From: a virus
Length of the DNA: 64,000 nucleotides
Virus record (IMG/VR): IMGVR_UViG_3300037466_003379
Location: 32,001-96,000 of that record
Direction: 5' to 3' (one strand)
Each line of letters begins with the position of its first letter. Within the stretch, counting starts at the first letter, position 1. A model generated the notes under the pieces. The model was given only the letters and a program-made list of their open reading frames with translations. It was not told where the DNA came from and did no database searches. The translations under genes and the position numbers were made by a program. Shown here piece by piece: positions 1-53,756 of this stretch.

Positions 1-443
1 AGCCCCGTCGCCGGGTCGAACGTGAGGCCCGGCCACACCAGGTCCTCGAACAGCGGGTTCTCCTGCATCACCGTCACGACCGCGCGGGCGGCGTTCCGGT
101 CGTGCGTCGGCCGGATGTCGACCGCATCGGCCGGCAGGAGCAGCGCGGCGGTGAGCTGCGGGGCGATGTTCATCGCCGAGCGCGTGGTCTGCCGTCCGCC
201 TGGCGCGCACACGATCGTCGCCCGCCACCCGTCGGGGATCTGCTCGACGTCGACCAGCCGCGAGTTCGGCAGCAGCCCGTTCGGCCCCGACACGTGGGCC
301 GCCCACTGGGCCTCCAGCCACGTCGCGTACTCGTCGAGCTCGGGCTCGAGCACGGGCGCCGGCGCGCGCAGCTCCCACCTCCGCCAGTACGGCCACGACG
401 CCGCGGCCATGCCGAGGGCGCAGAGGGTGTCCGGATCAAGCAT
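1..443 (-). CDS. TraB/FtsK-SpoIIIE-like plasmid transfer protein, N-proximal part (runs off the window)
   Basis: Not in the ORF track. Hand translation: MLDPDTLCALGMAAASWPYWRRWELR...WAAHVSGPNGLLPNSRL...AVDIRPTHDRNAARAVVTVMQENPLFEDLVWPGLTFDPATG. This resembles the segment preceding the ATPase domain in actinomycete TraB proteins. Walker motifs would lie outside the window. Confidence 0.6.
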   Translation of the reverse strand, partial: MLDPDTLCALGMAAASWPYWRRWELRAPAPVLEPELDEYATWLEAQWAAHVSGPNGLLPNSRLVDVEQIPDGWRATIVCAPGGRQTTRSAMNIAPQLTAALLLPADAVDIRPTHDRNAARAVVTVMQENPLFEDLVWPGLTFDPATG

Positions 444-777
444 CGGCAGCCACCCACAGAGCCCAGACCGCGGCGAAGCCGCCGAACAGAGCGGCCTCCC
501 CGGGGTGGCGGCGCCGCATCCGGGCCTGCCCGACCAGGACGACGGCGGCGATCAGGACGAGCATCGCGACCGACCACGGCGACTGGCCGTGCCGGGCGGC
601 GAGGCGCTCGACGAGCGTGCAGCCCCACACGAGGGCGATCCCGACGAGCGGAGCCAGGCCGCGGCGCGCACGGAACAGGCGCGACCGCAGCCGGGACATC
701 GCGGACGGCTTCGGCTCCGGCATCTGCGGGACGACGTAGATCGGGGCGGCGGGCTTGGCCTTCGACCAGAGCGCCAC
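436..777 (-). CDS. Membrane protein; possibly the detached N-terminal TM region of the TraB-like protein
   Basis: RBS AAGGAGAG before GTG; about 3 hydrophobic segments; stop overlaps the downstream ATG (ATGCTTGA). Confidence 0.65.
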   Translation of the reverse strand: MALWSKAKPAAPIYVVPQMPEPKPSAMSRLRSRLFRARRGLAPLVGIALVWGCTLVERLAARHGQSPWSVAMLVLIAAVVLVGQARMRRRHPGEAALFGGFAAVWALWVAADA

Positions 778-866
778 GGCTGCTCTCCTTCGTGCTGGTG
801 GCCCGACCCGGCCCCGGGGAAGCGGGGTCGGGTCGGGCCGGTGGGGTGGTGCCCTGCGAACAGGTC

Positions 867-1931
867 TCAGGCGGACTGATCCAGGTAGGCGTCACGCTGT
901 GCGGCGTGCTGCGCCTCCTGGTGCGCGGCGAGCAGGTTCCCGTGCCGCATGTGCACGTTCGTCTGCACCGTCGCGGCGTGCTCCTGCAGCTCGACGAACT
1001 CGGCCAGAGACGCCGGGTCCATGTCCTTCGCCGACAGGCCCTCACCCATCGCGGCGAGGTCGGCATTGAACTGGTTCACCAGCCGGTAGAAGGCGGGGAT
1101 CGACGCGGCGTCCCGGTCGACGTTCGCGTTGGTGTTGGTCGGTGCAGTCACGGGGGTGGTCCCTTCGGTGTCAGCCGCCGGGGCGGCCGGGGAGGTGGTC
1201 GGGTCGGTCGGTTGGGAGGCGCCGTCGCCGCCCTTCGGGGTCGGTGTCGGCTGCGGTGCAGCCGGGGTCGGATCGGCCGTACGGCCCAGATCGCGGGGGC
1301 CGCTGTTCGGAGGAGTGCCGTCCGGCGTGCGGGGCCGGTTCTGGACTCCGCATGCGCACTGGTCGCACTGGCAGCCCCGGGCCCCGTCGGTGTCGCGGTC
1401 GAGCGACAGGTGCCCGCACGCCGGGCAGGTGACGCGCCGGTCGCGCCGCCGGACCGCTGCGGATCGGTGGTCGGTGCCGGGCGGGAACCGGCGGCGGTCC
1501 CACTCGGCCTGCTGCAGCTCCCGCTGCCGCCGCCGCTTCGCCGCGGTAACCGCGTCAGAGCCGTAGTCGGCCACGTCCTCGACGCGGTCACGGAACCAGG
1601 CGAGCGGGCCGCGCTTCCCGCTGGACGAGCCGAACGGCTGAGCCTGGCGCATCCGGCGCCTGGACGACGCGGCCGGCCTGGACGACGTCCAGCCTCCAGC
1701 CGTCCCGCCTCCAGGGCTGGACGTCCAGCCGGAGCTGGACGGGCTGGACGTCCTGGACGATCCAGTCCCACGGGATCCAGCCGTCCCGCCCGCCCGGGTC
1801 CGACCGGAGCTGGACGAGCTGGACGACCCGTTCCCGGTGATCAGCCCTCCAGGCGTCCCGAGGGCGTCCAGGTGTCCAGTCGCCCGCATGATCCAGTAGG
1901 CGATCAGGACGCAGCCGAAGAACGGGTCCAT
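867..1931 (-). CDS. Transfer-region protein (TraA-like architecture), low-complexity middle, CxxC cluster
   Basis: ATG at 1931 coupled by TGATG to the upstream gene; helical C-terminus of the kind that precedes traB in actinomycete elements. Confidence 0.6.
   Translation of the reverse strand: MDPFFGCVLIAYWIMRATGHLDALGTPGGLITGNGSSSSSSSGRTRAGGTAGSRGTGSSRTSSPSSSGWTSSPGGGTAGGWTSSRPAASSRRRMRQAQPFGSSSGKRGPLAWFRDRVEDVADYGSDAVTAAKRRRQRELQQAEWDRRRFPPGTDHRSAAVRRRDRRVTCPACGHLSLDRDTDGARGCQCDQCACGVQNRPRTPDGTPPNSGPRDLGRTADPTPAAPQPTPTPKGGDGASQPTDPTTSPAAPAADTEGTTPVTAPTNTNANVDRDAASIPAFYRLVNQFNADLAAMGEGLSAKDMDPASLAEFVELQEHAATVQTNVHMRHGNLLAAHQEAQHAAQRDAYLDQSA
1621..1871. repeat. CTGGACG/CGTCCAG repeat array 1 (intragenic)
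   Basis: Hand count: 9 CTGGACG and 3 CGTCCAG in about 250 bp. Confidence 0.85.
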
Positions 1932-2341
1932 CAGCGCACCGCTCCGGACACGAGGTTGGACGCCCCGTTGGACAGGCTGTGCGACGCCGTCGAGACGATG
2001 CCCGGGATGGTGCCGCCGACGCTGGCCGCGACGATCGGCAGGAGCAGCGCGGCGACGGCGGTCATGCGGGTCGCGGCGCCCTTGTGCTTCGGCCACAGGT
2101 CGTGGACGACGACGAACAGCAGCACGATGAACAGCAGCACGCCGATCCCGGCGCCGATGATTGCGCCGGCGAGGCCGAGGAACATCGACAGCAGGCTCCC
2201 CAATCCGCCACCGGCGAATGCACCCCCTGCGGCGAACCACAGAAGCGCCGTGAATTTCGGCATCTTCCGCTTCCACATCAGAAGTGCGCCGAGGACCAGG
2301 AGCACGAGCCCGGTCAGCGAGAATCCGAGTGCCTGGAGCAT
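1931..2341 (-). CDS. Multi-pass membrane protein (spread/transfer accessory-like)
   Basis: MLQALGFSLTGLVLLVLG...; about 4 TM segments; TGATG coupling. Confidence 0.75.
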   Translation of the reverse strand: MLQALGFSLTGLVLLVLGALLMWKRKMPKFTALLWFAAGGAFAGGGLGSLLSMFLGLAGAIIGAGIGVLLFIVLLFVVVHDLWPKHKGAATRMTAVAALLLPIVAASVGGTIPGIVSTASHSLSNGASNLVSGAVR

Positions 2342-2841
2342 CAGCCGGTCACCCCTCCGACGGTCTTCACGATGAGCACGAGCGCGATCAGTGCGGCCGC
2401 GACTCCGGCGCGGGCCTTCCGCTCGAACAGGAACGCGGCGAAGTACAGGACGACGGTCGCGGGAACGGACCCGACCGCGAAGGGCAGGTCGAGGAGCGCG
2501 CACTCCCAGCGGCGGCCCGCCGCCCAGGACTCGCTGACGGCCTCGCAGTGGTAGCTGAGGACCTCCGCGGGGCTCGGGGGGCGCTGCTCCCAGAACGTGC
2601 CCGCCCGGCCGTCCTCGGGGGCGCTGGGGGCCTCCCCGGTGCCGCGGTGGCCGTCCCGGAACGGGCTGGAGAGCGCGCCCCAGACGGAGCGGCCTCGCGT
2701 ACGCGTGCGCGCGGGCGCGCGCGGCCCCGCGTTGGACCCCTCGGGGGTGGGGGCCTCCGGGTTGCCGTTGCCGTTGCCGTTGCCCCCCTCCCCCGCGGGG
2801 TAGGCGGGCTGCCAGGTCGACTCGTCGGCGGTCGTGGTCAT
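2341..2841 (-). CDS. Membrane protein, transfer region
   Basis: MTTTADESTW...; ATGA overlap; two C-terminal TM segments. Confidence 0.7.
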   Translation of the reverse strand: MTTTADESTWQPAYPAGEGGNGNGNGNPEAPTPEGSNAGPRAPARTRTRGRSVWGALSSPFRDGHRGTGEAPSAPEDGRAGTFWEQRPPSPAEVLSYHCEAVSESWAAGRRWECALLDLPFAVGSVPATVVLYFAAFLFERKARAGVAAALIALVLIVKTVGGVTG

Positions 2842-3089
2842 GCTGCCGATCCCTTCGTCTCGATCGCGGCGATGAGGCCGCCGATGGTCGTGAGCGCTTC
2901 CTCGGCGAGGGCCTGGACGAGCGCGGGCGGTGCGTGGCGGATGACGGCGGCGAGGTGCTCGCCGCGGACCCGGACGGCGGCGGCCGGGTCGGGGGCCTGG
3001 GCGACCCGCTCGTCGAAGAACGTGGTCCGGCGCGTGGCCGCGGCGACGGGGCCGAGGACCTTGCCGGTGATCTTGCGCCTTCCGGGCAT
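2838..3089 (-). CDS. Hypothetical protein
   Basis: Coding-like ORF, translationally coupled, RBS GGCGGAG. Confidence 0.65.
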   Translation of the reverse strand: MPGRRKITGKVLGPVAAATRRTTFFDERVAQAPDPAAAVRVRGEHLAAVIRHAPPALVQALAEEALTTIGGLIAAIETKGSAA

Positions 3090-3103
3090 TTCTCCGCCTT
3101 TTC

Positions 3104-3331
3104 TTATTTACCCGAAACGTAATTGCCGATAACATTTCCGCGGGAATCGAGCAATTCAAGCTCGTATTCGCCGACCCGGCCGCGGCCATCCCGACCAGCC
3201 ACGTTCTCCAGCGCCCTCCGCAGAACCTCGTCCGAGTCGCCCTTCGCGAAATCGACGTGGATCATGATTTCGCCGCGCTCGATCATGTAGCCATTTCGGC
3301 GGACCCGGCATTTCACCAGCTCGGCCGCCAT
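3104..3331 (-). CDS. Small hypothetical protein (lower GC)
   Basis: MAAELVKCRVRRNGY...; TGATG coupling to the upstream gene. Confidence 0.6.
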   Translation of the reverse strand: MAAELVKCRVRRNGYMIERGEIMIHVDFAKGDSDEVLRRALENVAGRDGRGRVGEYELELLDSRGNVIGNYVSGK

Positions 3332-4086
3332 CACACGGCCGCCTTCGTGAGGTGCTCGTCGGCGATCTTGATCAGCCGCTTCACCGGGCCCTCGCCGAGC
3401 CCGAGCTCCTGCATCAGCTTCGTCCGGCCGAGGCCCTCTCGGCGGAGCTTCACCGCCCGCTGGATCGTCACCCGGTCGAACTCGTCCGAGTCGCCCGGGA
3501 CGTCGTCCTGGACGTCGCCGGGACGTCCAGCGTCCAGCTCGTCCAGCTCGTCCCGTCCAGCGTCCAGCTCGTCGGGGGCGGAGCCGTCCAGCTCCTCCTG
3601 CTCGTCGCCGTCCAGCTCGTCCAGGTCCGGCCGTCCAGCGTCCAGGTCCTGGACGTCCAGCCGTCCAGCGTCCAGCCGTCCAGCGTCCTGGGCCTCCGGA
3701 CCGTCCATGTGCAGGACGGTCGCCAGGACGGGAGGCGGCAGGATCGCCAGCCCGACCGACGCGACCACCCAGGCGCCGCGTCCAGCGTCCACCGCGGCGG
3801 CGGCGTGCTCCAGCGCGTTGCCGACCATCGACACGAAGATCAGCGACAGCGACAGCCGACGGCCGACGGTCCGCTCGGTCGCAGTCGAGCTGCGCCGGCG
3901 CCAGGCGATCGTCCCGGCGAGCGCGCCCGCGTCGATCAGGACGGGCACGAGCCACGCGGAGTGCTCGGCGACACCGACGCGGACCGCGAGCGCCGCCAGG
4001 GCGTCGAAGCTCAGCCACGCACAGGCGACCGCCACGGCGAGCCGCGAGAGCGCCAGCGGGGCGCGGTCAGTGATCTTGCTCCACAC
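3331..4086 (-). CDS. DUF2637-like (Spd-type spread) membrane protein with C-terminal HTH-like segment
   Basis: WLSFDALAALA...AWLVPVLIDAG motif, 4 TM, acidic LDAGR repeats, C-terminal GLGRTKLMQELGLG; GTG with GAGAGG RBS. Confidence 0.7.
   Translation of the reverse strand: MWSKITDRAPLALSRLAVAVACAWLSFDALAALAVRVGVAEHSAWLVPVLIDAGALAGTIAWRRRSSTATERTVGRRLSLSLIFVSMVGNALEHAAAAVDAGRGAWVVASVGLAILPPPVLATVLHMDGPEAQDAGRLDAGRLDVQDLDAGRPDLDELDGDEQEELDGSAPDELDAGRDELDELDAGRPGDVQDDVPGDSDEFDRVTIQRAVKLRREGLGRTKLMQELGLGEGPVKRLIKIADEHLTKAAV
3508..3785. repeat. CGTCCAG(C) repeat array 2 (intragenic)
   Basis: Hand count: 14 CGTCCAG in 3524-3683, one more at 3779, and 2 inverted copies. Confidence 0.9.
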
Positions 4087-4150
4087 GGTGGAACCTCTCG
4101 GGGTTGCGTGCGCGCGGTCGCGCACGGGCGCGTGCACGCGCGAGGACGGG

Positions 4151-4555
4151 TCAGGCAGCAGCACGCCGGCGACGGCGGACGCTGCGGATCGGAATGACGG
4201 GGGCGAGGCCCTGGGAGGCCGGAGGGGTCGGGCCGACGCGGAGCCACGCCCGCAGCTCCGGGCCGATGCGGTACCGCCAGACGACGAGGAACACCGCCGT
4301 CCCACCGGACGCCCACGCCCCGGCGGTCCCACCGAGGTGCGCCAGCTCGTACGTGGACGCGGCGATCCACAGCACGCACGCCGGGGCCGGGCTCATGCCG
4401 TCTCCGATCGGAGCGACCTTCGGGACGGGCCCGAACATCCGGACCAGCCGCCGCGCGGTGAGCCGCCGGGCCGACCGGCGGACCGCTCGCAGCTCGGGGC
4501 CGTCCGGCACGTCGGCCAGGCAGCGGCCGTCCTCGTCGCGCTCGCGCTCGATCAC
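4151..4555 (-). CDS. Membrane protein
   Basis: GTGA overlap with the upstream stop; two hydrophobic segments. Confidence 0.55.
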   Translation of the reverse strand: MIERERDEDGRCLADVPDGPELRAVRRSARRLTARRLVRMFGPVPKVAPIGDGMSPAPACVLWIAASTYELAHLGGTAGAWASGGTAVFLVVWRYRIGPELRAWLRVGPTPPASQGLAPVIPIRSVRRRRRAAA

Positions 4556-4839
4556 AGCTTCGCCAGCTTCCAGGTGCCCAGCAGCGCGGCAGGAGCGAAC
4601 AGGGCGAACGGCGCGGCCAGCGCCACCGGCAGGCCGCCGGTCGCGGTCGCCACGTGGTCGCCGATCAGGCCGAAGAAGGCCAGGACCAGCGCCGCCATCA
4701 CCCACCGCACGACCGCGGCCTCCGGCAGCGGCGGCGCCGGGGCGCACGGGTCGAACGGCTCATCGTCATCGTCGACGGTCCAGGGGTTGAGGTCGTCGGG
4801 CTGGGGCTGGGGCTGGGCTTCGGGGTCCGTGCAGGTCAC
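4552..4839 (-). CDS. Small two-TM membrane protein, first gene of the transfer-like operon
   Basis: GGAGG RBS, acidic N-terminus, 2 TM. Confidence 0.65.
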   Translation of the reverse strand: MTCTDPEAQPQPQPDDLNPWTVDDDDEPFDPCAPAPPLPEAAVVRWVMAALVLAFFGLIGDHVATATGGLPVALAAPFALFAPAALLGTWKLAKL

Positions 4840-5082: not shown

Positions 5083-5469
5083 TTGAAGATCACGACCCTG
5101 CGCACCCTCGCAGGCACGCCAGGCTGCTCGGACTTTCCGACCTGCCCCGGCGTGCACGACCTCGACACGGACCCGGAGCACCGCTACGTGATCGCGAAGA
5201 CCATCACCGACCCGACCGAGCTGGCCGCCTTCGCGGGCGAGCTCGGCGACGGCGAGGTCCCCGGCTGGATGCCTGCAGGCTTCCTTCCCGCCGGCAACGA
5301 GGTCTTCACCCGCACCCGCCGCCTCTGGCAGTCGGGTATGCGCTCGGACCGCGACTACGTGATCACCACGCTGGTCACCGATGCCGCCGTGCTGCAGGAG
5401 TTCGCGCCGCTGATGGCCGCGGACGAGCACCTCGGTACGGTGCCCGTCCGCGCGCTGCTGGAGGTGTGA
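5083..5469 (+). CDS. Small partner of DUF6879 (internally duplicated)
   Basis: TTG start after GGAAGGGG; CxxxxxCP motif; two copies of YVI-x4-TD-x2-(E/V)L. Confidence 0.65.
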   Translation: MKITTLRTLAGTPGCSDFPTCPGVHDLDTDPEHRYVIAKTITDPTELAAFAGELGDGEVPGWMPAGFLPAGNEVFTRTRRLWQSGMRSDRDYVITTLVTDAAVLQEFAPLMAADEHLGTVPVRALLEV

Positions 5470-5472
5470 CCG

Positions 5473-6036
5473 ATGGGTGAGCTGCTCGATGTGCAGGGCC
5501 TGGTCGACGTGCTGAACGAGGGCTCCAGCTCCTCCGGTGACGTGATCTTCCGGCTGGAGCAGATCCCTGAGTACACGGTCGAGTCCGACGGCGGCGACTT
5601 CCAGGCGTGGTCCCGCGGCGTCCGGGAGCCGAACTGGGACCGCAAGCGCGGCTACACGGACCTCCTGGAGGCCCGCACCGCAGCCGGGGTCACCTCGCAG
5701 CGCGTGCGCGTCTTCTCGCCGAACCTGACCGACTACGAGCGCTACGCCTGCGAGTGGGGCTACGCGATCAACGGCCAGTACGGCGAGGACATCCGCGTGC
5801 TGCACCGCGGCGAGCATCGCGTGCCGCCGCTCCTCGGCTTCGACTACTGGCTCCTCGGCCGCGAGACCGTGGTGCGCATGCACTACGACGAGGTCGGTCG
5901 CTTCTGCGGCGCCGAGCTGGCGCCCGAGCTGCTCCGCCAGGTCCTCCGCGAGCGCGACGCGCTGTGGCAGGTCGCGGAGCCGTTCGACACCTGGTACCAG
6001 CAGCACCCCGAGTTCAGACGGCGATTGGCGGCCTGA
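5473..6036 (+). CDS. DUF6879-like protein
   Basis: FRLEQIPEY, QRVRVFSPNLTDYERY, GEDIRVL, DYWLLG, MHYD motifs. Confidence 0.75.
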   Translation: MGELLDVQGLVDVLNEGSSSSGDVIFRLEQIPEYTVESDGGDFQAWSRGVREPNWDRKRGYTDLLEARTAAGVTSQRVRVFSPNLTDYERYACEWGYAINGQYGEDIRVLHRGEHRVPPLLGFDYWLLGRETVVRMHYDEVGRFCGAELAPELLRQVLRERDALWQVAEPFDTWYQQHPEFRRRLAA

Positions 6037-6042
6037 CCTGCG

Positions 6043-6894
6043 ATGACAGACAGCACTGCGGAGGAGCGGTCCGAGCGGAAGTTCGGGCCGCTCCTTCGTG
6101 CTGCACGGGAGGCGGCCGAGCTCCGCCAGCGGGACGTCGCGGACCGCAGCGGCATCCCGCAGACCCGGCTGTCCCGCATGGAGAAGGACCCGCCGCTGGC
6201 CATGCCCACGCCGGAGCAGGCTCGCACGCTGGCCGACCTCTACCAGCTCGACGACGATGACCGCGCGTTCATCCTCCAGGCCGCAGACGACCACGCAGGC
6301 CGGAAGGACCGCCGCTATCACGTCATGGCCGGGACGAACGTCCTCAGCACGCAGCGGCTGTTCACGCTCCTCGAGCGGGAGGCCAAGCGTCTCCGGGCCT
6401 TCTCTGCCGGCGTCGTCCCCGGATCCGCGCAGACACCCCGGTACGTCGCCGCGATCATGGGCGAGGACGACGAGGCCGGGCCCAGCACGCAGGCGCGGCT
6501 CCCCCGGCTGATCGGGCATCCGGCGAACGCCGGCAAGCAGTACGAGCTGGTCCTCACCGAGTCGGCCGCCGTCATCGCGCTCGCCGCGGACAACGTGATG
6601 GCCGAGCAGTTCGAGGAGCTGGTCCGTCTCTCGGAGCGCCCGAACGTCGACCTCCGGATCATCCGGCGCGGTACGCGGCTCACGCCCTGGACGGTCCCCG
6701 CCATCACCATCTACGACGACGGCCCGGTGGTCCTCGGCCAGCTCCTCGACGGGTACATCCGGTTCGACGAGGGCGAGGACCTCGCCACGAAGTACATCGC
6801 CGAGTTCGAGCGACTGCAGGCCGCGGCGGCAGGTGGCGACGAGGCACGCGAGGCACTCCGGGACATCGCAGCCTGGTATCGGTCGCGGGATTGA
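6043..6894 (+). CDS. XRE-family HTH regulator with DUF5753-like C-terminal domain
   Basis: LRAAREAAELRQRDVADRSGIPQTRLSRME HTH; VPGSAQTPRY, VMAEQFEEL, PNVDLRII. Confidence 0.85.
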   Translation: MTDSTAEERSERKFGPLLRAAREAAELRQRDVADRSGIPQTRLSRMEKDPPLAMPTPEQARTLADLYQLDDDDRAFILQAADDHAGRKDRRYHVMAGTNVLSTQRLFTLLEREAKRLRAFSAGVVPGSAQTPRYVAAIMGEDDEAGPSTQARLPRLIGHPANAGKQYELVLTESAAVIALAADNVMAEQFEELVRLSERPNVDLRIIRRGTRLTPWTVPAITIYDDGPVVLGQLLDGYIRFDEGEDLATKYIAEFERLQAAAAGGDEAREALRDIAAWYRSRD

Positions 6895-6973
6895 TCCGGC
6901 GCGCCCTCTGGCCAGCGGGCTGAGGCTGGGTTACATTATACCGGTAAACCGGACCGCCGACTTAGGAGGGCTC

Positions 6974-7333
6974 ATGCCCAGGCCCCTGCCGCTGCCGACG
7001 CACGAGCCCGACGCCGAGGCCCGCGAGATCATCGACCGCATCTACGCCTACGCCCGCGACACCGACGACGACACCACCAGCGAGGAACGACTCCAGCGCC
7101 TGGCCTCCGCCATGCACATCTGGATCGCCGCCGAGGCCAGCTGGGAGCACGTCCTCGTCGAAGCCAAGAGCCAGGCCAACCCCGGCTGGCTCTCCTGGGA
7201 CCGCCTGGTCGAGAAGACGAAGATGCGGCTCTCCACGATGCAGGACCGCATCGGCAAGGGCCCGGCCCGGTACCGCGCCACCCAGGTCCACCACGAGCTG
7301 CCCTCCCCCCGGCGTAGCCGCGAGGTCGCGTAG
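6974..7333 (+). CDS. Hypothetical protein, possible C-terminal HTH
   Basis: TTAGGAGG RBS before ATG 6974; SWDRLVEKTKMRLSTMQDRI is HTH-like. Confidence 0.65.
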   Translation: MPRPLPLPTHEPDAEAREIIDRIYAYARDTDDDTTSEERLQRLASAMHIWIAAEASWEHVLVEAKSQANPGWLSWDRLVEKTKMRLSTMQDRIGKGPARYRATQVHHELPSPRRSREVA

Positions 7334-7373
7334 CCCCTCCCCGCTCCGCTCCGGCGGTAGCGGTCTGACCTGC

Positions 7374-7638
7374 GTGTTGCACTGCAACATCGCGACATAG
7401 GAACACCCGCACACTGCGACGGCGTCACGGTGTGCGGGTGTTCTGCTGTTGCGGCGTTGCTCTGTCGCGTTGTGCCCCTGTCGCACCGCGACTCCGTTGC
7501 GGTGTTGCTGCGACACGCCGTTGCGCTGTGCGCCTGTCGCACCGTCACAGTGCTGCTACGTTGCCCAGCGACACTGCGACACCCGAACAGAGCAACGGTG
7601 TGCCACCCACACACCGTGTCGCTGTGCCACTGCAACAC
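7374..7638. repeat. Centromere-like (parS/parC) array of degenerate 8-bp units in alternating orientation
   Basis: Strict 8-bp phasing: CTGCAACA TCGCGACA TAGGAACA CCCGCACA CTGCGACG, then inverted TGTGCGGG TGTTCTGC TGTTGCGG CGTTGCTC TGTCGCGT; directly upstream of parA. Confidence 0.8.
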
Positions 7639-7674
7639 GACCCCAACGCGCCCGACCCGACCCCGAGGTGATCA

Positions 7675-8463
7675 GTGCCTGCCGAGACGATCTGCATGGC
7701 GAACTTCAAGGGCGGGGTCGCGAAGTCGACGACGTCCGTCAACGTGGCCGCCACGCTCGCCCAGCGCGGCCATCGGACGCTCCTGGTCGACTGCGACCCG
7801 CAGGCCAACTCCAGCGAGATGTTCCTCGACGAGGACGCCATCGAGATGGACCTCCGCTCGATCATCGTCGAGAAGGAGGAGACCGAGAAGGTCATCCAGC
7901 AGACGCGGATCGGGAACCTCGACGTCCTGCCGGCCAGCTTCGACCTGGCGTTCCTGGACAAGGAACTCGTCGTGTCGCCGAACGGCGTGCAGCGCATCGA
8001 CCGCGCGCTCCGGCCCGTCCGCGAGCTGTACGACTACATCGTGATCGACACCGGCCCGAACCTGTCGCACCTGACGCTGGGCGCGCTCGCCGCGTCCCAG
8101 CACGTCGTCATCCCGGTCTCCGCGACCGTGTGGGCGTCGAAGGGGCTGCTCAAGTTCGTCCGGTGGATCGACGGCAACCGCGACGAGGAGGTGCTCGCCG
8201 CCGAGCTTCTCGGCCTCGTCGCGACGATCGTGCAGCCGAGCACCCGGATCGGGCGCGCCCTGCTCGAGGACCTGCCGCAGTCGGGCATGCCGAGCTTCCG
8301 CACCTTCATCCCGCGGCGGATCAAGGCTGAGGACGCCGTTATGGACCGGCTCGTCGTGGGGGAGCCTGGCGTCGACATCAGCCTCACCACGGCCTATCAG
8401 GATCTGACGACCGAGCTGGTCGAGCGGATCGCGAAGGCGAAGGGGCCACGCCATGCCCGGTAA
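7675..8463 (+). CDS. parA: ParA-family partition ATPase
   Basis: Deviant Walker A KGGVAKST, LVDCDPQAN, Walker B YIVIDTGP; no N-terminal HTH (type Ib-like). Confidence 0.95.
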   Translation: MPAETICMANFKGGVAKSTTSVNVAATLAQRGHRTLLVDCDPQANSSEMFLDEDAIEMDLRSIIVEKEETEKVIQQTRIGNLDVLPASFDLAFLDKELVVSPNGVQRIDRALRPVRELYDYIVIDTGPNLSHLTLGALAASQHVVIPVSATVWASKGLLKFVRWIDGNRDEEVLAAELLGLVATIVQPSTRIGRALLEDLPQSGMPSFRTFIPRRIKAEDAVMDRLVVGEPGVDISLTTAYQDLTTELVERIAKAKGPRHAR

Positions 8464-8839
8464 GAGCCGCGGCTTCGGCGGGAACCTCCTCGGCGGGACC
8501 GTCAGGCCGATCCCTGACGACGACGAGCCGACGCCCGCGCCCACGACCACCCCGGAGCCCGCTCCGGCCCCGCCAGCGCAAGCTGAGGCGACGCAGCAGG
8601 CCGCCCCGGCGCCGCGGCCCCGAGCAGTCCCCGATCCGGAGCCGGAGCCGACCCCGGTCTCTGAGTCCAGCCGCGCTCGGAAAGGGCCGCCCGCGACCAT
8701 CCGCCTGAACGGCACGGCGGGGGAGGCTCTGTGGCAGGCGTACCTCGAAGCCAAGGCGCGCGACCACTTCCTCAGCTATCGGCAGTTCGCCTCCGACGTC
8801 GTCATGGACGGACTCATCCGCCAGAAGCGGCGCCGCTGA
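8453..8839 (+). CDS. Putative centromere-binding partner of ParA
   Basis: Overlaps the parA end; Pro-rich linker; short C-terminal strand-helix-helix (ATIRL...ALWQAYLEAK...SYRQFASDVV). Confidence 0.7.
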   Translation: MPGKSRGFGGNLLGGTVRPIPDDDEPTPAPTTTPEPAPAPPAQAEATQQAAPAPRPRAVPDPEPEPTPVSESSRARKGPPATIRLNGTAGEALWQAYLEAKARDHFLSYRQFASDVVMDGLIRQKRRR

Positions 8840-8853
8840 GCCTCTGACCAGCA

Positions 8854-8890
8854 TGTTGCACTGCAACACTGCAACACGGAGCGGTATAAT
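8854..8890 (+). promoter_or_regulatory. Second centromere-like repeat cluster abutting a TATAAT -10 box
   Basis: TGTTGCAC TGCAACAC TGCAACAC (8854-8877), then TATAAT at 8885-8890. Confidence 0.65.
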
Positions 8891-11787: not shown

Positions 11788-12194
11788 CGATCACCGTCCT
11801 GGGTCGTGGCCGGCGGAGCGGCCGTCAGCTGCGGGCAGTAGTAGACGGCGCCGCTGTCGGTGGCGTAGCAGTCGCCGACCTTCACGCCGACGTGGATGTG
11901 CACGACCGGCGCCGGGACGGCGACGACCTCGTGCTGCACGACCGGGGCGACCTCGCCGACCGGGGTCGCGAGCCGCACGGTCGGGGCCGCGTCCGGGCGG
12001 CCCTGCCACAGCCCGAGGTCGGCGCCGAGGAAGGCGACGGACACGAGCGCCAGCAGCACCAGTCCAGCGGCGCCACCAGCGAGCAGATGAGGGGGCCGGA
12101 GGCTCCGCGACGCGAAACCCCGGCGGGAGTGCCTGGGGGACAACTGGGCCGCCTTCCGGAGGGGTTGGGGCCGTCGGGTCCGCGCCCTCTCCAC
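11784..12194 (-). CDS. Single-TM lysis-cassette protein
   Basis: One TM segment, two Cys at the C-terminus, coupled to the endolysin start; start uncertain. Confidence 0.5.
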   Translation of the reverse strand: MERARTRRPQPLRKAAQLSPRHSRRGFASRSLRPPHLLAGGAAGLVLLALVSVAFLGADLGLWQGRPDAAPTVRLATPVGEVAPVVQHEVVAVPAPVVHIHVGVKVGDCYATDSGAVYYCPQLTAAPPATTQDGDR

Positions 12195-12221
12195 ACGGAC
12201 CCGACGGCGATCATGGGACGC

Positions 12222-44712: not shown

Positions 44713-45350
44713 CCGAGGTCCAGCCCGCCGAGGTAGGCGTGGATGCGCTCGCCGATGGTCTCCAGGTCCGGGTACTGCCGCCGCAGCCAGCGCATCCACT
44801 CGTAGAAGCGGCTCTGCTGCACCTCGTTGTCGAACACGAGGTTGTAGGCGACCACGGCCTCACCGAGGCCCTTCGACCCGCCGCCCTCGTCGTCGTCCTC
44901 GTCGTCCTCGTCATCCCCCGGGAACGACGGCGGCTCGATGAGTTTCTGCACGTCATCATCGGTGTAGCCGAGGCCGTCGTAGTCGCCCTCGAAGTAGGAG
45001 AGCAGCTGCACGAGGTCGTCGGCGTCGTCGTACCCCAGGCTCGCCTGCCGGTTGTCCGCGACCACGATCCGCCGGGCGAGGTCGTCGTCCATGCGGTGCA
45101 CCTCGCAGCGGACGTTCTTGAAGCCCTCCGCCTTGAGGCCCTGGAAGGTGTGGTTCCCGGCCAGGATCCGGAAGCCCTCGGGGCCCCGGTCCTGGACGAT
45201 CAGGGCCCGGTACTGGCCGTGCCGGCGCAGCGACTTCCGGAGCTCGGCGACGTTCCCGCGCCGGGCGTTCCCCGGGTACTCGTGCAGCTCGCCGAGCGGA
45301 ATGCTCCGCGTCTCGACGAACGTGTCCAGCTCCTCCGTGTTGCTCGCCAC
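44709..45350 (-). CDS. ParB N-terminal-domain protein
   Basis: YPGNARRG, GQYRALIV, ILAGNHT, ADNR. Confidence 0.85.
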   Translation of the reverse strand: MASNTEELDTFVETRSIPLGELHEYPGNARRGNVAELRKSLRRHGQYRALIVQDRGPEGFRILAGNHTFQGLKAEGFKNVRCEVHRMDDDLARRIVVADNRQASLGYDDADDLVQLLSYFEGDYDGLGYTDDDVQKLIEPPSFPGDDEDDEDDDEGGGSKGLGEAVVAYNLVFDNEVQQSRFYEWMRWLRRQYPDLETIGERIHAYLGGLDLG

Positions 45351-45459
45351 GGGGGTCACCTCCTCAGCGGGAGGTCGCACCCCCGCGGTCCAAGTCGTTG
45401 ATCGCTGCGCGGGGGCCGCGCGAGGGTGTCCAGAGATCAGAGCCGCAGGCCGTCGGCCT

Positions 45460-46279: not shown

Positions 46280-46717
46280 TCACGACGCCACCCCCAGTCC
46301 GAGAGACGCGGCCGCGGCGAGGCCGCCGGAGGCGACCAGCACGGCGAGGGTCGTGGCGTAGGAGCGGACGCGGCCGCGCGCGGTCGCGCGGAGCTCGGAG
46401 ATCCCGACGACGATCCCGACGGCCAGGACGCCGGCCACGGTGAGGCCGGGCCAGCCGGGCAGCAGCGCGACCGGCACCGCGGGGGCGGCGGACCCGGCGA
46501 GGGTCGCGCCGCCCATCACCGCGGCGCCTCGCGGCGACCCGGCGGACAGGTAGTCCCCGGATGCCATCCCGACCGCGGAGGCGATCGCGAGGCCGACGGT
46601 GGCGGCCAGGACGGTGAGCGGGGGAGTGTGCGCGGCGAGGAGACCGGCGAGGACGCCGACGAGGCTGGTCAGGCCGTCGAACGCGCCGAACACCAGCCGC
46701 GAGGTCTCCGTGCGCAC
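46280..46717 (-). CDS. Minimal VIT1/CCC1-family membrane protein
   Basis: VFGAFDGLTS and AVGMASGDYLS resemble VIT1 TM1/TM2 motifs; about 5 TM; no cytosolic loop. Confidence 0.7.
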   Translation of the reverse strand: MRTETSRLVFGAFDGLTSLVGVLAGLLAAHTPPLTVLAATVGLAIASAVGMASGDYLSAGSPRGAAVMGGATLAGSAAPAVPVALLPGWPGLTVAGVLAVGIVVGISELRATARGRVRSYATTLAVLVASGGLAAAASLGLGVAS

Positions 46718-46718
46718 C

Positions 46719-47420
46719 TCAGACGACGGTGAAGCTGGTGACGTCGCCGCCCTGCGACAGCAGGTACTTGAAGTCCGCGTAGGACAGCCAGCCCCAGCCC
46801 TTCGCGCCCCAGCTGGTGCCCCAGGAGTTGGCGAACCGGACGCGCTGAGCTGCCGGGTCGATGCCGTCCACGCACACCTGGTGGCCGCCCGCGAGCCCGG
46901 AGTGCGGGTCGACCTTCACGACGCCGTGGGAGTCGGGCTCGAACATCGAGTTGAACCACGGCACGCCGATCGTGACCGGCTTCGAGGCGATCGCGGCGAG
47001 CGCCGTGGTCGCGGTGAACGCGTGCATGTACCCGGAGATCAGGCCGCGCGCCTTGAGCGCCTTCGCCGAGTACAGCCCGGTGGAGCCGGTGTCGTCCGGC
47101 GGGTAGTGGCCGGGGATCTCCCGGTCGTCGATCAGGGTTTCCTCGTGGTACAGCTCGACGGCGTCGGTCTCGCTGTAGACCTTGCCGCGCCAGTTCGGGC
47201 CGGTCACGAGGACGCCCAGGGCGGCGTTCGCCGTGCACGAGCCGATCTGGCCCTGGTCGAAGATCGGCACGTGCCGGGTGTGCAGCACGGTCTGCACCGG
47301 CAGGATCGTGCTGGTCAGCGCGAAGCCGCGGGAGCGGGGGTCGTGCACCTGGTGACGGCCGAGACGGCTGTCGGTGCGCTCGAAGACGTGGACGTCCACG
47401 GAGTGGTCCTCCTCAGGCAT
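46719..47420 (-). CDS. Papain-like (C1) cysteine peptidase
   Basis: DQGQIGSC, GGHQV, FANSWGTSWG catalytic motifs. Confidence 0.88.
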   Translation of the reverse strand: MPEEDHSVDVHVFERTDSRLGRHQVHDPRSRGFALTSTILPVQTVLHTRHVPIFDQGQIGSCTANAALGVLVTGPNWRGKVYSETDAVELYHEETLIDDREIPGHYPPDDTGSTGLYSAKALKARGLISGYMHAFTATTALAAIASKPVTIGVPWFNSMFEPDSHGVVKVDPHSGLAGGHQVCVDGIDPAAQRVRFANSWGTSWGAKGWGWLSYADFKYLLSQGGDVTSFTVV

Positions 47421-47469: not shown

Positions 47470-50400
47470 TCAGGCCTCGGACGGTGTGCCGGCGGTCAGC
47501 CCGGTGGTCACGGTCGGTGCGCCAGCGATCAGGCCGACGACAAGCGGAAGCCCAGCGGCCAGCCCAGCGGTCACGGTCGGTGCGCCCGCGGTCAGCCCAC
47601 CGGTCTCGACCGGTGTGCCTGCGGTCAGCCCGCCGGTGACCAGCGGGGTCCCGGCGTGCAGCTCCCGTATCGCGGACCGCACGGCCGCCAGCGCAGTGAG
47701 TCCGCCGAGGAGCGCGGCCGCGCTCGCGGCGAGGGACTTCCGGGCGGCCGCGCCTGCGGCGAGCTGCCCGAGGTGGGCGACCGCGGCGGCCAGGACGAGG
47801 GTCTCCGCGGTGGCGGACGCGGTGAGCGAGCCGAGCGGAGCCGCCGCCGCGCCGAGCGCGGTCGGGGTGGCGGCGGCGAGCGCGACGACCGGGCCGAGGA
47901 GCGCGGCCGCCGTGCCGGGCCGGATGGATTCCGCGGCTGCGTGCCCGATGAGCGACCCGAGCGGTGCGACAGCAGCCGCTCCGCCCTTCCGCACCGCTGT
48001 CGCAGCCCCGGACAGGGCACCGAGGGCTGCCGTCGCGGATCCGGAGTGCTTCACGGCGGCGGTCGCGGTGGCGGTGAAGCCGAACGCGCCCACCGCACCG
48101 GCGGTGACCTTGACCGACGCCGAGCTCGCGGCGACGAGCCGGCCCAGCGGGGCCGCAGCGGTCGCCTGCACGGTCGGGGTCGCCCCGGCGTGCCCGCCCA
48201 GCCCGCCGAGCGGCGCCGTAGCCGAGGCCGAGCCGCCCGTGGCCGCCGACGCGTGGGCGGTGAACCCGAACGACGCCGCAGCGGACGCCCCGACCTGAAC
48301 TCGAGCAGCCGCAGCAGCGGCGAGAGATCCGAGCGATGCGGCAGCTGCCGCCTGGCCCCGCGGTGTCGCCGACGCGGTACCGGTGAGCCCGCCGAGCGGA
48401 GCCGACGCGGAAGCGGCCCGGGTGGTCCGGGCCGCGGCCGAGGCTGCGAACTGGAGCGGCGCCGTGGCGGACGCCGTGTGCTTCTGGGTCGCCGACGCGG
48501 TCGCGGCGAGCGGCCCGAGAGCTGCCGTCCCGGTAGCGAGCTTCGACCCGCTGCTTGACGCGGCTGCGACGAGCCCGCCCAGCGGGGCTGCCGCGGTCGC
48601 GGCCCGCGCAACGGTCGCGTGTCCCGTCCCCGTGAGCCCGCCGAGCAGAGCGGCCGCCGTGGCAGCCCCGGTCCGGACCGCGCTGGCGTGCGCGGTGAGC
48701 GGCCCGAGGGCGCCGGTCCCGGTGGCCGGGTGGGTGAGCTTCGCGGACGCAGCCGCGGTGAGCGCGCCGAGCGCGGCCGCCGCAGCGGCCCGGACCTGCG
48801 GGGTCGCTGTGGCGTGCCCGGTGAGCGCGCCCAGCGGTGCCGCCGCGGAGCCGGTGCCTGTCCTGGTCGCCGCAGCCGCGCCGGTGAAGACGAGGATCGC
48901 GGCGGCCGAGGCCCGCACGGTGGGCGTGGCTGATGCGGTGGCGTGGAGCGTGCCGAGCGGGGCGGCAGCGGTGGCCTGCACCGTCGGGACGGCGTTGGCG
49001 TGGCCGGTCAGCGCTCCAAGGGGGGCGGCCGCGGTCGCGGTCCACTCCTCGATCGCCGTCGCGTGGCCGGTCAGCGGCCCGAGCGCGGCAGTGGCGGCCG
49101 CGGGCACCGTGACGGCGGCCGTGGCGTGCCCGACGAGCGAGCCGAGCGGTGCCGCGGCGGACGCCCGGACGGTGACGGCGGCGGCGGCCGTGGCGGCGAG
49201 CTGCCCGAGTGGTGCCGTCGCGGTCGCCCGCACCTGCGGTGTCGCGGTTGCTGCTGCGGTGAGCCCGCCGAGGGCGGCCGCAGCCGACCCGGTGGTCGTT
49301 CGGCCCGCGTTGGCGTGCGCGGTGAACACGAACGGTGCAGCCGCGATGGCCGGCACCTTCACCGACGCGTTGGCGTGGCCGACAAGCTGGCCGAGCGGCG
49401 CCGCAGCGGTCGCGTTCACCAGGGGCTTCGCGGTCGCCGTAGCTGCCAGCGCGCCGAGCGGCGCCGAGGCGGAGCCGGTGACCTTCGGCGTCGCCGAGGC
49501 CTGCGCGACGAACCCGAACGAGGCCGCAGCGGAACCGTTGACGCGCACCGAGGCGGCGGCCGTGCCCGTGAGCCCGCCCAGGGGGGCTGACGCGCTGGCG
49601 CGCACCTGAGGCGTCGCTGTGGCGGTCGCAGCGAGCCCGCCGAGCGGGGCCGACGCGGTCGCGGCCCACTGGCGGTGAGCCGCAGCTGCACCGGTCAGCG
49701 ACCCGAGGGGCGCGGACGCGGCCGCGGAGACCTTCGGCAGCGCTGTGGCGCTACCGGACAGTCCGCCGAGGGGTGCGGCCGCGGTCGCCTTGACCGTCGG
49801 CACGGCGGTCGCGGTCGCCGACAGCCCGCCCAGGGGAGCACTCGCGGATCCGGTGACCGTCGCGGCCGTCGAGCCGACGAACAGCGCGCCCTGGCTGGTG
49901 TACTGGGCGCTGACGCTCTGGGTGGCCGTCGCCGTCACCGAGCTGCTGGTGAAGGCGAGGTTGTAGGCGCGGACAGCCGTGAAATAGGTGTCGATGTTGA
50001 AGGTGTAGCCAGTCCCGCTGCCGCCGGAGCCGGTGCCGCTCGTGACGCAGTACCCGACGTAGAGGGCCGAGGTCACGCCCGAGAGCAGGGACGGCTTCTG
50101 GAACGACATCGTGGTCGACGCCGCGCCGTTCGCCCCCGAGTAGTTGTTGACCGTCCAGTTCGTCCCGGAGCCGAGACCAGCGCTGTAGAAGTCCGCCGAG
50201 ATCTCGCAGTTGCCCGGGGTGCCCGTGCGCGTGACCGAGATCGTTTTCCCGGTCCCCACGCTGTTGATCTTGCCCGCCCAGAACGTCACCGTCGTGACGG
50301 CGCCCGACGAGCTGCTCTGCCGAGTACCGACGAGCGTCAGCCCGGCCGACCCGTCGATCCCGCCCGCCGCGGTGCAGGTGACCGCCGTCGCCCAGCTGGT

Positions 50401-50532
50401 CGCCGACGACGTCGCATCGGTGACGACGATCAGGTCGCCCAGCGCGGTCGCGCTGGTGGAGATCGACAGGGATGTGACCGGCTGGGTGACGTTCCCGGTC
50501 GCCGTGAACGTGCCCTTGTGGGTGTACGCCAC
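47470..50532 (-). CDS. Ala-rich repeat fibre/decoration protein
   Basis: Beta-rich head, about 30 repeats of A-x-APLG-x-L-x-A-x-A (about 22 aa), C-terminal GLTAGTP repeats. Confidence 0.75.
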   Translation of the reverse strand: MAYTHKGTFTATGNVTQPVTSLSISTSATALGDLIVVTDATSSATSWATAVTCTAAGGIDGSAGLTLVGTRQSSSSGAVTTVTFWAGKINSVGTGKTISVTRTGTPGNCEISADFYSAGLGSGTNWTVNNYSGANGAASTTMSFQKPSLLSGVTSALYVGYCVTSGTGSGGSGTGYTFNIDTYFTAVRAYNLAFTSSSVTATATQSVSAQYTSQGALFVGSTAATVTGSASAPLGGLSATATAVPTVKATAAAPLGGLSGSATALPKVSAAASAPLGSLTGAAAAHRQWAATASAPLGGLAATATATPQVRASASAPLGGLTGTAAASVRVNGSAAASFGFVAQASATPKVTGSASAPLGALAATATAKPLVNATAAAPLGQLVGHANASVKVPAIAAAPFVFTAHANAGRTTTGSAAAALGGLTAAATATPQVRATATAPLGQLAATAAAAVTVRASAAAPLGSLVGHATAAVTVPAAATAALGPLTGHATAIEEWTATAAAPLGALTGHANAVPTVQATAAAPLGTLHATASATPTVRASAAAILVFTGAAAATRTGTGSAAAPLGALTGHATATPQVRAAAAAALGALTAAASAKLTHPATGTGALGPLTAHASAVRTGAATAAALLGGLTGTGHATVARAATAAAPLGGLVAAASSSGSKLATGTAALGPLAATASATQKHTASATAPLQFAASAAARTTRAASASAPLGGLTGTASATPRGQAAAAASLGSLAAAAAARVQVGASAAASFGFTAHASAATGGSASATAPLGGLGGHAGATPTVQATAAAPLGRLVAASSASVKVTAGAVGAFGFTATATAAVKHSGSATAALGALSGAATAVRKGGAAAVAPLGSLIGHAAAESIRPGTAAALLGPVVALAAATPTALGAAAAPLGSLTASATAETLVLAAAVAHLGQLAAGAAARKSLAASAAALLGGLTALAAVRSAIRELHAGTPLVTGGLTAGTPVETGGLTAGAPTVTAGLAAGLPLVVGLIAGAPTVTTGLTAGTPSEA

Positions 50533-52405: not shown

Positions 52406-52638
52406 CGCTCCATCCTCACCCAGTGCGAGAGCATCGGGCCTGGCACGGAGGCGTGGACGACCGGGATCCCGTACAGCGCGGCGCACCCCGGGAGCACGTC
52501 GTCCGGCAGAACCCACGTCACGTCATCGAGGAGCGCCTGCTCTCGCAGCCTCTGGATCGTGGAGATGCCCGCGACGAGCAGCGCCCGGGCCTGGTCCTCC
52601 TGAGCCGTGACTAGCCTCATGACCTCGTCGCTGATCAC
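52402..52638 (-). CDS. Hypothetical protein
   Basis: Coupled to the recombinase stop. Confidence 0.5.
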   Translation of the reverse strand: MISDEVMRLVTAQEDQARALLVAGISTIQRLREQALLDDVTWVLPDDVLPGCAALYGIPVVHASVPGPMLSHWVRMER

Positions 52639-53705
52639 AGGACACCTCGCATGGCGTTGTCGCGCCACGGATCTGCGGCTCTGGCGTACTTGACGACCAT
52701 CGTGCTGTTCTCCGACCAGCGGGCGTGCCGGGCGACGACACCTGCCGGGACGCCCTTCCGGAGCGCCGCGGTGGCCGCTCCGGAGCGGAGGCTGTGTGCG
52801 CTGTAGAGCTCGGCGTCGGGCAGGCGTGCGGCCTTGGCGGCGGCCTTCACGACCCGGTCGACCGCCTCGCCCGCGATGCTCATCCGGCGCGGGGTGCCCC
52901 ACTTCGTGACCGGCCGGAACAGCGGCGTCTCGGGGTCGAGCAGGCCCGGGGTTATGACAACCTCAGCGAGCTTCGCCCTGTAGACGCGGTGGGTCCGGAC
53001 GGGGCAGACGGAGACGTGCGAGCCTGGCGGGACCGCCACCACGGTGCCTTCGGAGTCCTTGTCGGTCTTCGACGTCCGGATGGTGACGAGCAGGCCCTGC
53101 GGGTCCTCCACGACGTCGGCCAGGCGCAGCGCGGCCAGCTCGGAGCGGCGCACCATCATCCCGTAGCCGAGGGTCAGGATCAGCTGGTCCCGCAGGCCGA
53201 CGTACGTCGTCGGGTCGAGGGTCTCGACCATGCGCTCGATGTCCTCGGGGGAGAGGGGTCGAGCTTCCTTCGTCCGGCGGCCTTCGGTCGCCCGCTTCCG
53301 CTTGTACCCCCGGAGGAGCTGGAGCGCGCCCTCGGTGTCGGGCTGCCCCTTGAAGCCGGCGACCGCGTGCAGCTTCCGGAGCGCGCCGATCGTGGTCGAG
53401 ATCCGCGAGGGAGCGGCGTCGATCTCGATGAGGTGGGCGACGAACTCGGTCAGGGTGGCGTCGGTGGCCGGGATGGCGGTCCGGCGGTGCAGCCGACACC
53501 ACTCCTCGAACTCTCGTCCGATTCGCTCGTATGTCCGCCGGGTGTTCTCCGGTACCGATTCCGCCAGCAGTGTGCGGGTCGTGTCGCTGATCCGCCAATC
53601 CGCATCGGTGTACGGAGTGACTGATCTGTTGAGGTTCGGGTGCTCTGGCGCGGGAAGGACCACTAGGTCCGTTCCGGGGGTTTTCGCCGGGTGATCTTGA
53701 GTCAC
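52635..53705 (-). CDS. Tyrosine recombinase, Cre-like (resolvase rather than classic integrase)
   Basis: PENTRRTY, RRSEL, SKTD, HSLRSG, HARWS...KY (Trp in place of the second His, as in Cre); no arm-binding domain evident. Confidence 0.9.
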   Translation of the reverse strand: MTQDHPAKTPGTDLVVLPAPEHPNLNRSVTPYTDADWRISDTTRTLLAESVPENTRRTYERIGREFEEWCRLHRRTAIPATDATLTEFVAHLIEIDAAPSRISTTIGALRKLHAVAGFKGQPDTEGALQLLRGYKRKRATEGRRTKEARPLSPEDIERMVETLDPTTYVGLRDQLILTLGYGMMVRRSELAALRLADVVEDPQGLLVTIRTSKTDKDSEGTVVAVPPGSHVSVCPVRTHRVYRAKLAEVVITPGLLDPETPLFRPVTKWGTPRRMSIAGEAVDRVVKAAAKAARLPDAELYSAHSLRSGAATAALRKGVPAGVVARHARWSENSTMVVKYARAADPWRDNAMRGVL

Positions 53706-53722
53706 GGTCCGACCCTAGCGTC

Positions 53723-53756
53723 TCAGGTCGCGATAACTTCGCTTATCGCGTTCTGA
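53723..53756. promoter_or_regulatory. lox/dif-like recombination site
   Basis: TCAGgtCGCGATAA-cttcgc-TTATCGCGttCTGA: imperfect 14-bp inverted arms with a 6-bp asymmetric spacer, 18 bp upstream of the recombinase. Confidence 0.65.

Follow-up and report, generated by a model that had tools for sequence, protein, structure and literature searches.

Can a single actinomycete element carry the genes of a virus, the maintenance functions of a plasmid and a machinery that moves double-stranded DNA between cells? This question is raised by a locus in a window of 64,000 nucleotides, namely positions 32001-96000 of a single 104,105-bp IMG/VR virus record (IMGVR_UViG_3300037466_003379, hereafter the contig); coordinates below refer to the window unless the contig or another record is named. 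A first-pass annotation had proposed a phage-plasmid in which siphovirus virion genes stand beside a partition locus, a Cre-like recombinase and a TraB-type conjugation operon. Our analysis supports the phage-plasmid reading proposed from the sequence: the leftmost gene encodes an FtsK domain, and neither att sites nor a compositional break separates the transfer genes from the virion genes. We regard it as fairly probable that the element is a P1-like low-copy plasmid prophage of a mycelial high-GC actinomycete, a temperate siphovirus of at least 104 kb equipped with a TraB/Spd system for double-stranded DNA transfer and its own clt.

The GC content of the window is about 72%, at which plain lists of open reading frames (ORFs) are useless, so genes were called by codon-position GC (GC3). 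This gave 82 genes in the window and 145 in the contig. All the gene content claimed from the sequence, that is virion and lysis, partition (par), recombinase and transfer (tra) genes, is present, and the gene calls together with family matches establish that the four modules co-exist.

We examined the left end of the window, where two overlapping genes of the tra operon are found:

<1-443, minus strand: first 147 codons of the gene for a TraB-family, FtsK-like double-stranded DNA translocase (full gene at contig 30752-32443, 563 amino acids (aa))
436-777, minus strand: 113-aa protein with three predicted transmembrane (TM) helices, its gene overlapping traB by 8 bp

Once the left gene was completed from the contig, both an FtsK-type ATPase and a winged helix, the features on which the first-pass annotation had staked its claim for this gene, were found in its product. 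The protein contains Walker A (GAPGMGKT) and Walker B (VVDEW) motifs, and every invariant column of the family is intact. An exhaustive HMMER search recovered 376 homologues, most of them 640-720 aa long, whereas a word-indexed protein search returned one relative only. Among 65 sampled homologues, 50 matched the NCBIfam model plasmid_TraB (NF041214) at E<=0.001, the best at 2e-37. When compared with solved structures, the family profile matched EccC (1e-17) and FtsK (2iuu, 5e-14), and its positions 575-656 matched structures with a winged helix-turn-helix (wHTH); as a single sequence, the protein gave no match in the PDB. Its AlphaFold (AF2) model has a pLDDT of 92. Foldseek placed FtsK motor domains at the top (3e-15, TM-score 0.63), followed by the TcpA coupling protein, and residues 491-554 of the model form three helices plus a hairpin, a winged-helix unit with pLDDT >90. 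Homologues, family profile and fold model together make the TraB assignment solid. Judged by its sequence, the protein represents a divergent subfamily and not an equivalog, with membership established via transitive homology.

The 563-aa protein lacks the N-terminal membrane-association region, typical TraB proteins carrying about 150 extra N-terminal residues. The product of 436-777 aligned by hhalign with columns 41-76 of the TraB family profile (probability 70%, E 4e-5), and the closest TraB homologues (545-584 aa) are equally short, without the N-terminal part. Because the three-TM ORF aligns to the missing part of the profile and the nearest homologues are just as short, the 436-777 product probably represents the membrane-bound N-terminal part of TraB, encoded separately, and the translocase of this subfamily probably consists of two pieces.

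TraB homologues were present on 88 actinomycete plasmids, and neither TraB query detected any in 50,697 deposited phage genomes. This distribution speaks against a rival account, in which the element is an integrating temperate phage, its recombinase is an integrase, and the TraB/DUF2637 operon serves intramycelial spread of phage DNA or exclusion of incoming DNA instead of conjugation. Two observations on the transfer genes favour that account: a PHROGs family of FtsK/SpoIIIE-like phage proteins matches TraB (6.5e-11), and a role in spreading phage DNA has been suggested for the SpdB2 homologues of some actinophages (PMC4447253). Taking these together with the evidence on maintenance and recombination given below, we consider an integrating phage unlikely.

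TraB proteins recognise 8-bp repeats in clt (PMC4447253), and the contig was therefore scanned for local clusters of 8-mers. The two strongest clusters in all 104 kb share one word, GCTGGACG/CGTCCAGC, and both lie within the tra operon. In the window, GCTGGACG is found 35 times where 7.2 +/- 2.6 occurrences are expected, a count that no shuffle reached, and 21 of the 35 fall inside the tra operon, in a stretch of 2.2 kb. The first cluster constitutes a candidate transfer site:

1620-1830: candidate clt, a cluster of GCTGGACG/CGTCCAGC in both orientations (8 copies exact, about 6 degenerate) that falls mostly in an intergenic gap of the tra operon

Thirteen further copies, at 3524-3786, belong to the DUF2637 gene and specify an acidic, LD-rich repeat of its product. 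Since the same word recurs in the non-coding gap, the clustering argues for selection on GCTGGACG at the DNA level, as far as sequence can tell. Repeats resembling clt may often be embedded in DUF2637 genes. The closest relative, the 56.6-kb metagenome contig L009, carries a different 8-mer, CGGCGAGC, six times at its positions 11601-12000, just downstream of traB.

The remaining genes of the tra operon and the block divergent from it are as follows:

867-1652, minus strand: 261-aa protein without a family match, containing a Pro/Thr-rich linker and a Cys-rich segment that resembles a zinc ribbon
1931-2203, minus strand: 90-aa Spd-like membrane protein with two TM helices, kept in the relatives L008 and L009
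2341-2841, minus strand: 166-aa protein with two C-terminal TM helices, translationally coupled with its 83-aa neighbour
within 2341-3089, minus strand: 83-aa protein, kept in L009
3331-4086, minus strand: DUF2637 membrane protein, an SpdB2-like candidate (Pfam PF10935, 27.8 bits against a cutoff of 22.8; phrog_733)
4151-4839, minus strand: first two genes of the operon, overlapping by 4 bp and encoding 134 aa and, at 4552-4839, 95 aa with two TM helices
5083-7333, plus strand: divergent four-gene block encoding an unknown 128-aa protein, a DUF6879 protein, an XRE regulator (HTH_31+DUF5753) and an unknown 119-aa protein

The operon thus runs from <1 to 4839 on the minus strand, co-oriented throughout and with gene overlaps of 4-8 bp, and the co-oriented set of TraB-like, DUF2637 and membrane genes described earlier is indeed there. 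Five of its ORFs have 2-3 predicted TM helices. In the spd operons of pSVH1, the genes for small membrane proteins are translationally coupled (PMC4447253). The DUF2637 protein itself combines three TM helices, an acidic LD-repeat linker and a C-terminal tail resembling a helix-turn-helix, and a DUF2637 gene also adjoins traB in the plasmid NZ_CP108279.

The divergent block at 5083-7333 is kept beside traB in L009. Its DUF6879 and HTH_31+DUF5753 pair (5473-6894, plus strand) stands beside tra there as well, at L009 5401-6611, and may regulate the tra operon in place of a GntR-type TraR. A candidate for a GntR repressor of the TraR/KorA type was rejected, being a sub-threshold match only, 14 kb from traB.

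How would such an element be maintained in its host? The genes that bear on replication and segregation are:

Contig 14575-15714, left of the window: O-like replication initiator
7360-7650: candidate centromere or operator, repeat-rich and of lower GC (66%), upstream of parA
7675-8463, plus strand: ParA partition ATPase (AAA_31, 1e-45; ParA_partition, 7e-26)
8453-8839, plus strand: 128-aa candidate partner of ParA, assigned by its position and its overlap with parA
8843-8877: par repeat TGTTGCACTGCAACACTGCAACA in its second copy, immediately behind the partner gene

CTGCAAC occurs four times in the 64-kb window (7382, 7630, 8861 and 8869), each time in a flank of the par operon, and the 13-mer GTTGCACTGCAAC has 6 matches where 0.64 are expected. 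The locus of ParA, partner and centromere could be confirmed as ParA, a small putative partner gene and flanking repeats, the centromere remaining a candidate. Plasmid maintenance would account for ParA, its flanking repeats and the O-like initiator, which is a point against an integrating phage.

The recombinase bears on the same choice. It is accompanied by a palindrome:

52635-53663, minus strand: Cre-like tyrosine recombinase, 342 aa (Phage_integrase, 2.5e-10)
53718-53759: candidate recombination site, GCGTC..CGCGATAA-cttcgc-TTATCGCG..GACGC, 55-96 bp upstream of the recombinase start, read from the sequence and of putative function

Residues 37-332 of the recombinase align with Cre 37-330 (E 4e-13), and its best solved relatives are Cre chains. 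At the positions of Cre R173, E176, K201, H289, R292, W315 and Y324, the residues are identical. The protein is collinear with Cre and has no arm-binding N-terminal extension, features that disfavour an integrase; an integrating phage would in turn draw on the match to phrog_1, annotated as an integrase (5e-19), on the linear viral contig without closure and on the lack of a Kil-Kor GntR regulator. No host flank and no tRNA gene were found in the 104 kb of the contig, which again counts against integration.

The loxP site of P1 is 34 bp long, with 13-bp inverted arms around an 8-bp spacer. The palindrome core CGCGATAA-cttcgc-TTATCGCG (53729-53750, 65 bases upstream of the recombinase start) has perfect 8-bp arms, a 6-bp spacer and imperfect outer symmetry, and hence does not have the 13+8+13 arrangement. 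It shares with a loxP arm what we take to be a 9-nt match, ATAACTTCG. A core recombination site at 53729-53750 is plausible from the sequence. The suggestion of a Cre-like resolvase with a lox-like site therefore holds for the Cre alignment, the catalytic residues and the adjacent palindrome, but not for the layout of loxP.

We next turn to the virion genes, which occupy the minus strand in the order TerL to lysin. From the terminase end, they are:

39439-41013, minus strand: TerL, terminase of the Terminase_6N type (phrog_979, 4e-38)
37727-39334, minus strand: portal
35533-37083, minus strand: head-morphogenesis protein with a MuF-like C-terminal part
33445-35283, minus strand: scaffold/protease-like protein
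31873-33261, minus strand: major capsid protein (SU10_MCP), 60% aa identity to that of pAmyja1
within 28289-33261, minus strand: head-tail connector genes, between tail tube and capsid
28289-29446, minus strand: tail tube, 60% aa identity to that of pAmyja1
22879-26553, minus strand: tape measure protein (phrog_58, 1e-85), 49% identical to that of pAmyja1
19652-21163, minus strand: 503-aa minor tail protein with a GH46 chitosanase domain
15809-18688, minus strand: 959-aa minor tail protein with a CBM_4_9 domain
13984-15793, minus strand: three fibre paralogues
10711-11787, minus strand: lysin with an Rv2525c-like glycoside-hydrolase domain, at the distal end of the virion/lysis operon

The block 28289-33261 was assigned through matches to phrog_752 and SU10_MCP. 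The operon from TerL (39439-41013) to lysin (10711-11787) proved intact, as had been claimed: its ORFs are long, uninterrupted, co-oriented and of high GC3, and no frameshifts or insertion sequence (IS) elements were seen. These properties bear on a further alternative, namely a conjugative plasmid with a defective prophage remnant that can no longer be induced, so that only spread of the plasmid type would be real. That the relatives in PLSDB were deposited as plasmids is in line with such a remnant, and gene content cannot show that virion genes are expressed or sufficient. However, every gene from TerL to lysin is intact in the above sense and 40-66% identical to its pAmyja1 counterpart, and CheckV rates the contig as an 88% complete virus. 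We judge a defective remnant to be quite improbable. The nearest relative of the virion module is pAmyja1, a circular plasmid, which is also at odds with an integrating phage.

Further genes lie between and beyond these modules:

9136-10659, plus strand: membrane family-2 glycosyltransferase (a moron), between the par locus and the lysin
43040-45359, minus strand: ParB_N/PAPS-reductase/ParB_N trio upstream of the terminase, common to pAmyja1 and cluster B mycobacteriophages

The trio shares 71-77% nucleotide identity with genes of cluster B mycobacteriophages, and a DpdA homologue was found at contig 24017-24862 (plus strand, 2.9e-74). Together they suggest a DNA-modification system, possibly of the 7-deazaguanine or Dnd type. 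The GH46 chitosanase domain of the tail protein at 19652-21163 (minus strand) is complete (3e-55), and the MuF-like protein (35533-37083, minus strand) is fused to an N-terminal domain resembling 2'-5' RNA ligases/phosphoesterases. At 46280-47420 (minus strand), a 233-aa protein with a papain-like Peptidase_C1 domain stands beside a small protein with an N-terminal match to the VIT1 family; both are unusual in phage. An ORF of 1020 aa at 47470-50532 (minus strand) had no Pfam match and consists of a normal N-terminal domain of about 200 aa followed by about 800 aa of Ala/Thr/Gly/Ser-rich repeats, each of 21 residues (63 nt, 'SASAPLGGLTG...'), with a local GC of 78%.

Do all these genes belong to one replicon? 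An independent pair of neighbouring elements, for instance an actinomycete integrative and conjugative element (AICE) or small plasmid beside a phage, or else a chimeric assembly, might produce the same picture. No counterpart of the tra module (contig 30.7-36.8 kb) turned up in pAmyja1 at E<1e-5, and the contig stems from an automated viral catalogue, both of which would suit that scenario. Against it, GC3 is uniform, at 0.93-0.95 in every module. No integrase, excisionase or replication gene was found adjoining the tra operon, and no att-like direct repeats flank the tra module, the longest shared word being 15 bp and within the range of shuffled sequences. An AICE insertion was rejected on these grounds. 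In addition, the order traB, small tra genes, DUF6879, XRE regulator, an unknown gene and ParA is preserved in L009, an independent metagenome contig, and adjacency of tra and virion genes also occurs in many closed circular plasmids. Two separate elements or a chimera are, in our view, very improbable.

The space between the modules is consistent with a single element. Among about 60 window proteins scanned, a set that did not include every small ORF, there was no transposase and no housekeeping gene, in agreement with the earlier statement that host genes and IS scars are absent between modules. The contig outside the virion and tra genes is phage- or plasmid-like, encoding the O-like initiator, a UvrD-type helicase, DpdA, a dCTP deaminase, DUF3560 and, outside the window, a 597-aa ParB-like protein; no housekeeping genes were found in this rest of the contig.

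The ends of the contig deserve a closer look. An intergenic, promoter-like unit of about 100 bp occurs in some 13 copies (contig 51-29089 and 103979-104105), upstream of small genes and in both orientations. The final 127 bp of the contig equal bases 51-177 with 100% identity and amount to one copy of this unit. We rejected this identity as a circular overlap, given its offset of 50 bp and the roughly 13-fold repetition of the unit. The assembly probably broke at the contig ends owing to the identical 127-bp copy, and about 12% of the element is probably missing.

Several observations weigh against a plasmid prophage with its own transfer system. The contig is classed as linear with a CheckV completeness of 88%, its ends do not join up, and its left end cuts through a gene. 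Taken alone, TraB falls below curated cutoffs (Pfam FtsK_SpoIIIE, 22 against 24 bits; NCBIfam plasmid_TraB (NF041214), 24.9 against 800). The ParA partner (8453-8839) matches no family, no GntR repressor of the TraR/KorA type lies beside traB, and the recombinase could instead be an integrase. The 13 copies in the DUF2637 gene may reflect LD peptide repeats and not DNA sites; in NZ_CP108279 (L006), GCCGAAGC occurs ten times at 12001-12400, within the DUF2637 gene of that plasmid.

If the element is nevertheless a plasmid prophage with its own transfer system, we propose that it would work as follows. For packaging, the headful-type TerL would act with the portal, capsid and tail proteins encoded in the operon, and the glycoside-hydrolase lysin would release the particles. 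During lysogeny, the O-like initiator would replicate the element, while ParA and its small partner would segregate it via the repeats enriched around their genes. By analogy with P1 and by its alignment with Cre, the recombinase may act on the adjacent palindrome, either resolving multimers or circularising terminally redundant virion DNA. For transfer, TraB, by family and fold, would form a hexameric FtsK-type pump anchored by the separately encoded membrane piece. Its C-terminal winged helix may bind the clustered GCTGGACG 8-mers, and the pump would drive double-stranded element DNA into neighbouring hyphae. The DUF2637 protein and the small Spd-like membrane proteins may then carry the DNA across septa.

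Such an element would have three routes of spread: virion infection, vertical inheritance as a plasmid, and contact-dependent transfer or intramycelial spread. It would contradict the published review statement that no phage-plasmid is conjugative (PMC12282955). Reviews of phage-plasmids treat viral and conjugative transfer as alternatives, and the combination with TraB has been overlooked there. The TraB route is missed by typing based on relaxases and type IV secretion systems (T4SS) because it needs only one translocase and a cis site. The candidate clt and TraB form a DNA-protein pair that is directly testable, and the element lends itself to studying in which situations a mobile element resorts to lysis and in which to contact transfer.

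Is the combination confined to this element? With the TerL and TraB of NZ_CP108852 as queries, we found at least 19 complete circular Streptomyces plasmids of 85-94 kb in which the TerL and TraB genes lie 1-3 kb apart. They include pSLE1 (NZ_LN831788), NZ_CP012383 of S. ambofaciens and NZ_CP108852 itself (Streptomyces sp. NBC_00842), in which the TraB gene adjoins the terminase, capsid and tape-measure genes. By MOB-suite they are typed as non-mobilizable. The plasmid-phage pZL12 was reportedly described in 2010, in J Bacteriol 192:3747, and to our knowledge it is the only one of these plasmid relatives for which particle production has been shown. The tra locus of this plasmid-phage is reported to be required for conjugal transfer (PMC3583192), and pSLE1 was annotated through homology and synteny to pZL12 (PMC4487206). 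The novelty premise of the first-pass annotation, that phage-plasmids typically lack conjugation genes, has to be revised: pZL12 with its functional tra has been known since 2010, and at least 19 plasmids have TerL beside TraB. The kind is thus already known, one of its members having experimental backing. Together with the present element, these plasmids show that mycelial actinomycetes commonly harbour the combination, which emerged in virion lineages unrelated to each other. We tentatively suggest, at somewhat less than even confidence, that TraB/Spd transfer of double-stranded DNA is a general and repeatedly acquired trait of actinomycete plasmid-prophages, with the present element adding a third virion lineage to the pZL12 family and pAmyja1, and that a two-piece translocase reads GCTGGACG in an intergenic clt and in DUF2637 coding sequence.

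At the DNA level, near-identity searches of 1-50 kb gave no match among plasmids and a sole match among phages, a 0.8-kb PAPS-reductase segment of cluster B mycobacteriophages; a search for related loci in viral and genome contig collections found none. Like the pZL12 family, the element unites a siphovirus virion operon, a ParA-type partition locus and a TraB-family gene in one replicon. In contrast to that family, 38 kb separate its traB from terL, traB being placed past the par locus on the lysin side of the virion operon. The membrane domain of TraB is detached from the translocase, the virion genes belong to the type found in pAmyja1, and no GntR regulator is adjacent; TerL is about 28% identical over half its length, and TraB about 25%.

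The virion module corresponds most closely to that of pAmyja1 of Amycolatopsis japonica (NZ_CP008954, 92.5 kb, circular), with which it is syntenic from lysin to TerL at 40-66% aa identity. The ParB_N/PAPS-reductase trio and the DUF3560, DpdA-neighbour and methyltransferase genes are also common to both, and pAmyja1 carries a tyrosine recombinase. On the other hand, pAmyja1 has no homologue (E<1e-5) of the present TraB, DUF2637 operon, ParA, family-2 glycosyltransferase or Cre-like recombinase. Beside its lysin, at 1399-3612 (plus strand), it encodes a 737-aa 'hypothetical protein' with N-terminal TM helices and GKS, IIDEA and ATQ motifs, which matches the TraB family profile weakly. This protein is possibly an FtsK-like translocase that has diverged very far; the plasmid itself is typed as non-mobilizable.

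With transfer systems of the pSVH1/pIJ101 type, the element shares an FtsK-like ATPase ending in a wHTH, a single 8-bp motif that occurs in clusters, and a coupled operon of small membrane proteins (PMC4447253). It differs from them in that the N-terminal membrane part is a separate ORF, no GntR TraR/KorA gene is adjacent, and the motif cluster lies inside the operon and in the DUF2637 gene, where those systems have it at the 3' end of traB. Its replicon is a phage genome of 104 kb, theirs a small plasmid. Coliphage P1 is without conjugation genes. The element resembles it in the Cre-like recombinase, the ParA partition locus and the headful-type terminase, whereas the virion, replication and partition genes are unrelated and the candidate site does not have the 34-bp loxP layout. 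By these sequence comparisons, the element is a lineage separate from pZL12 within an already-known kind, that of plasmid-phages with tra genes.

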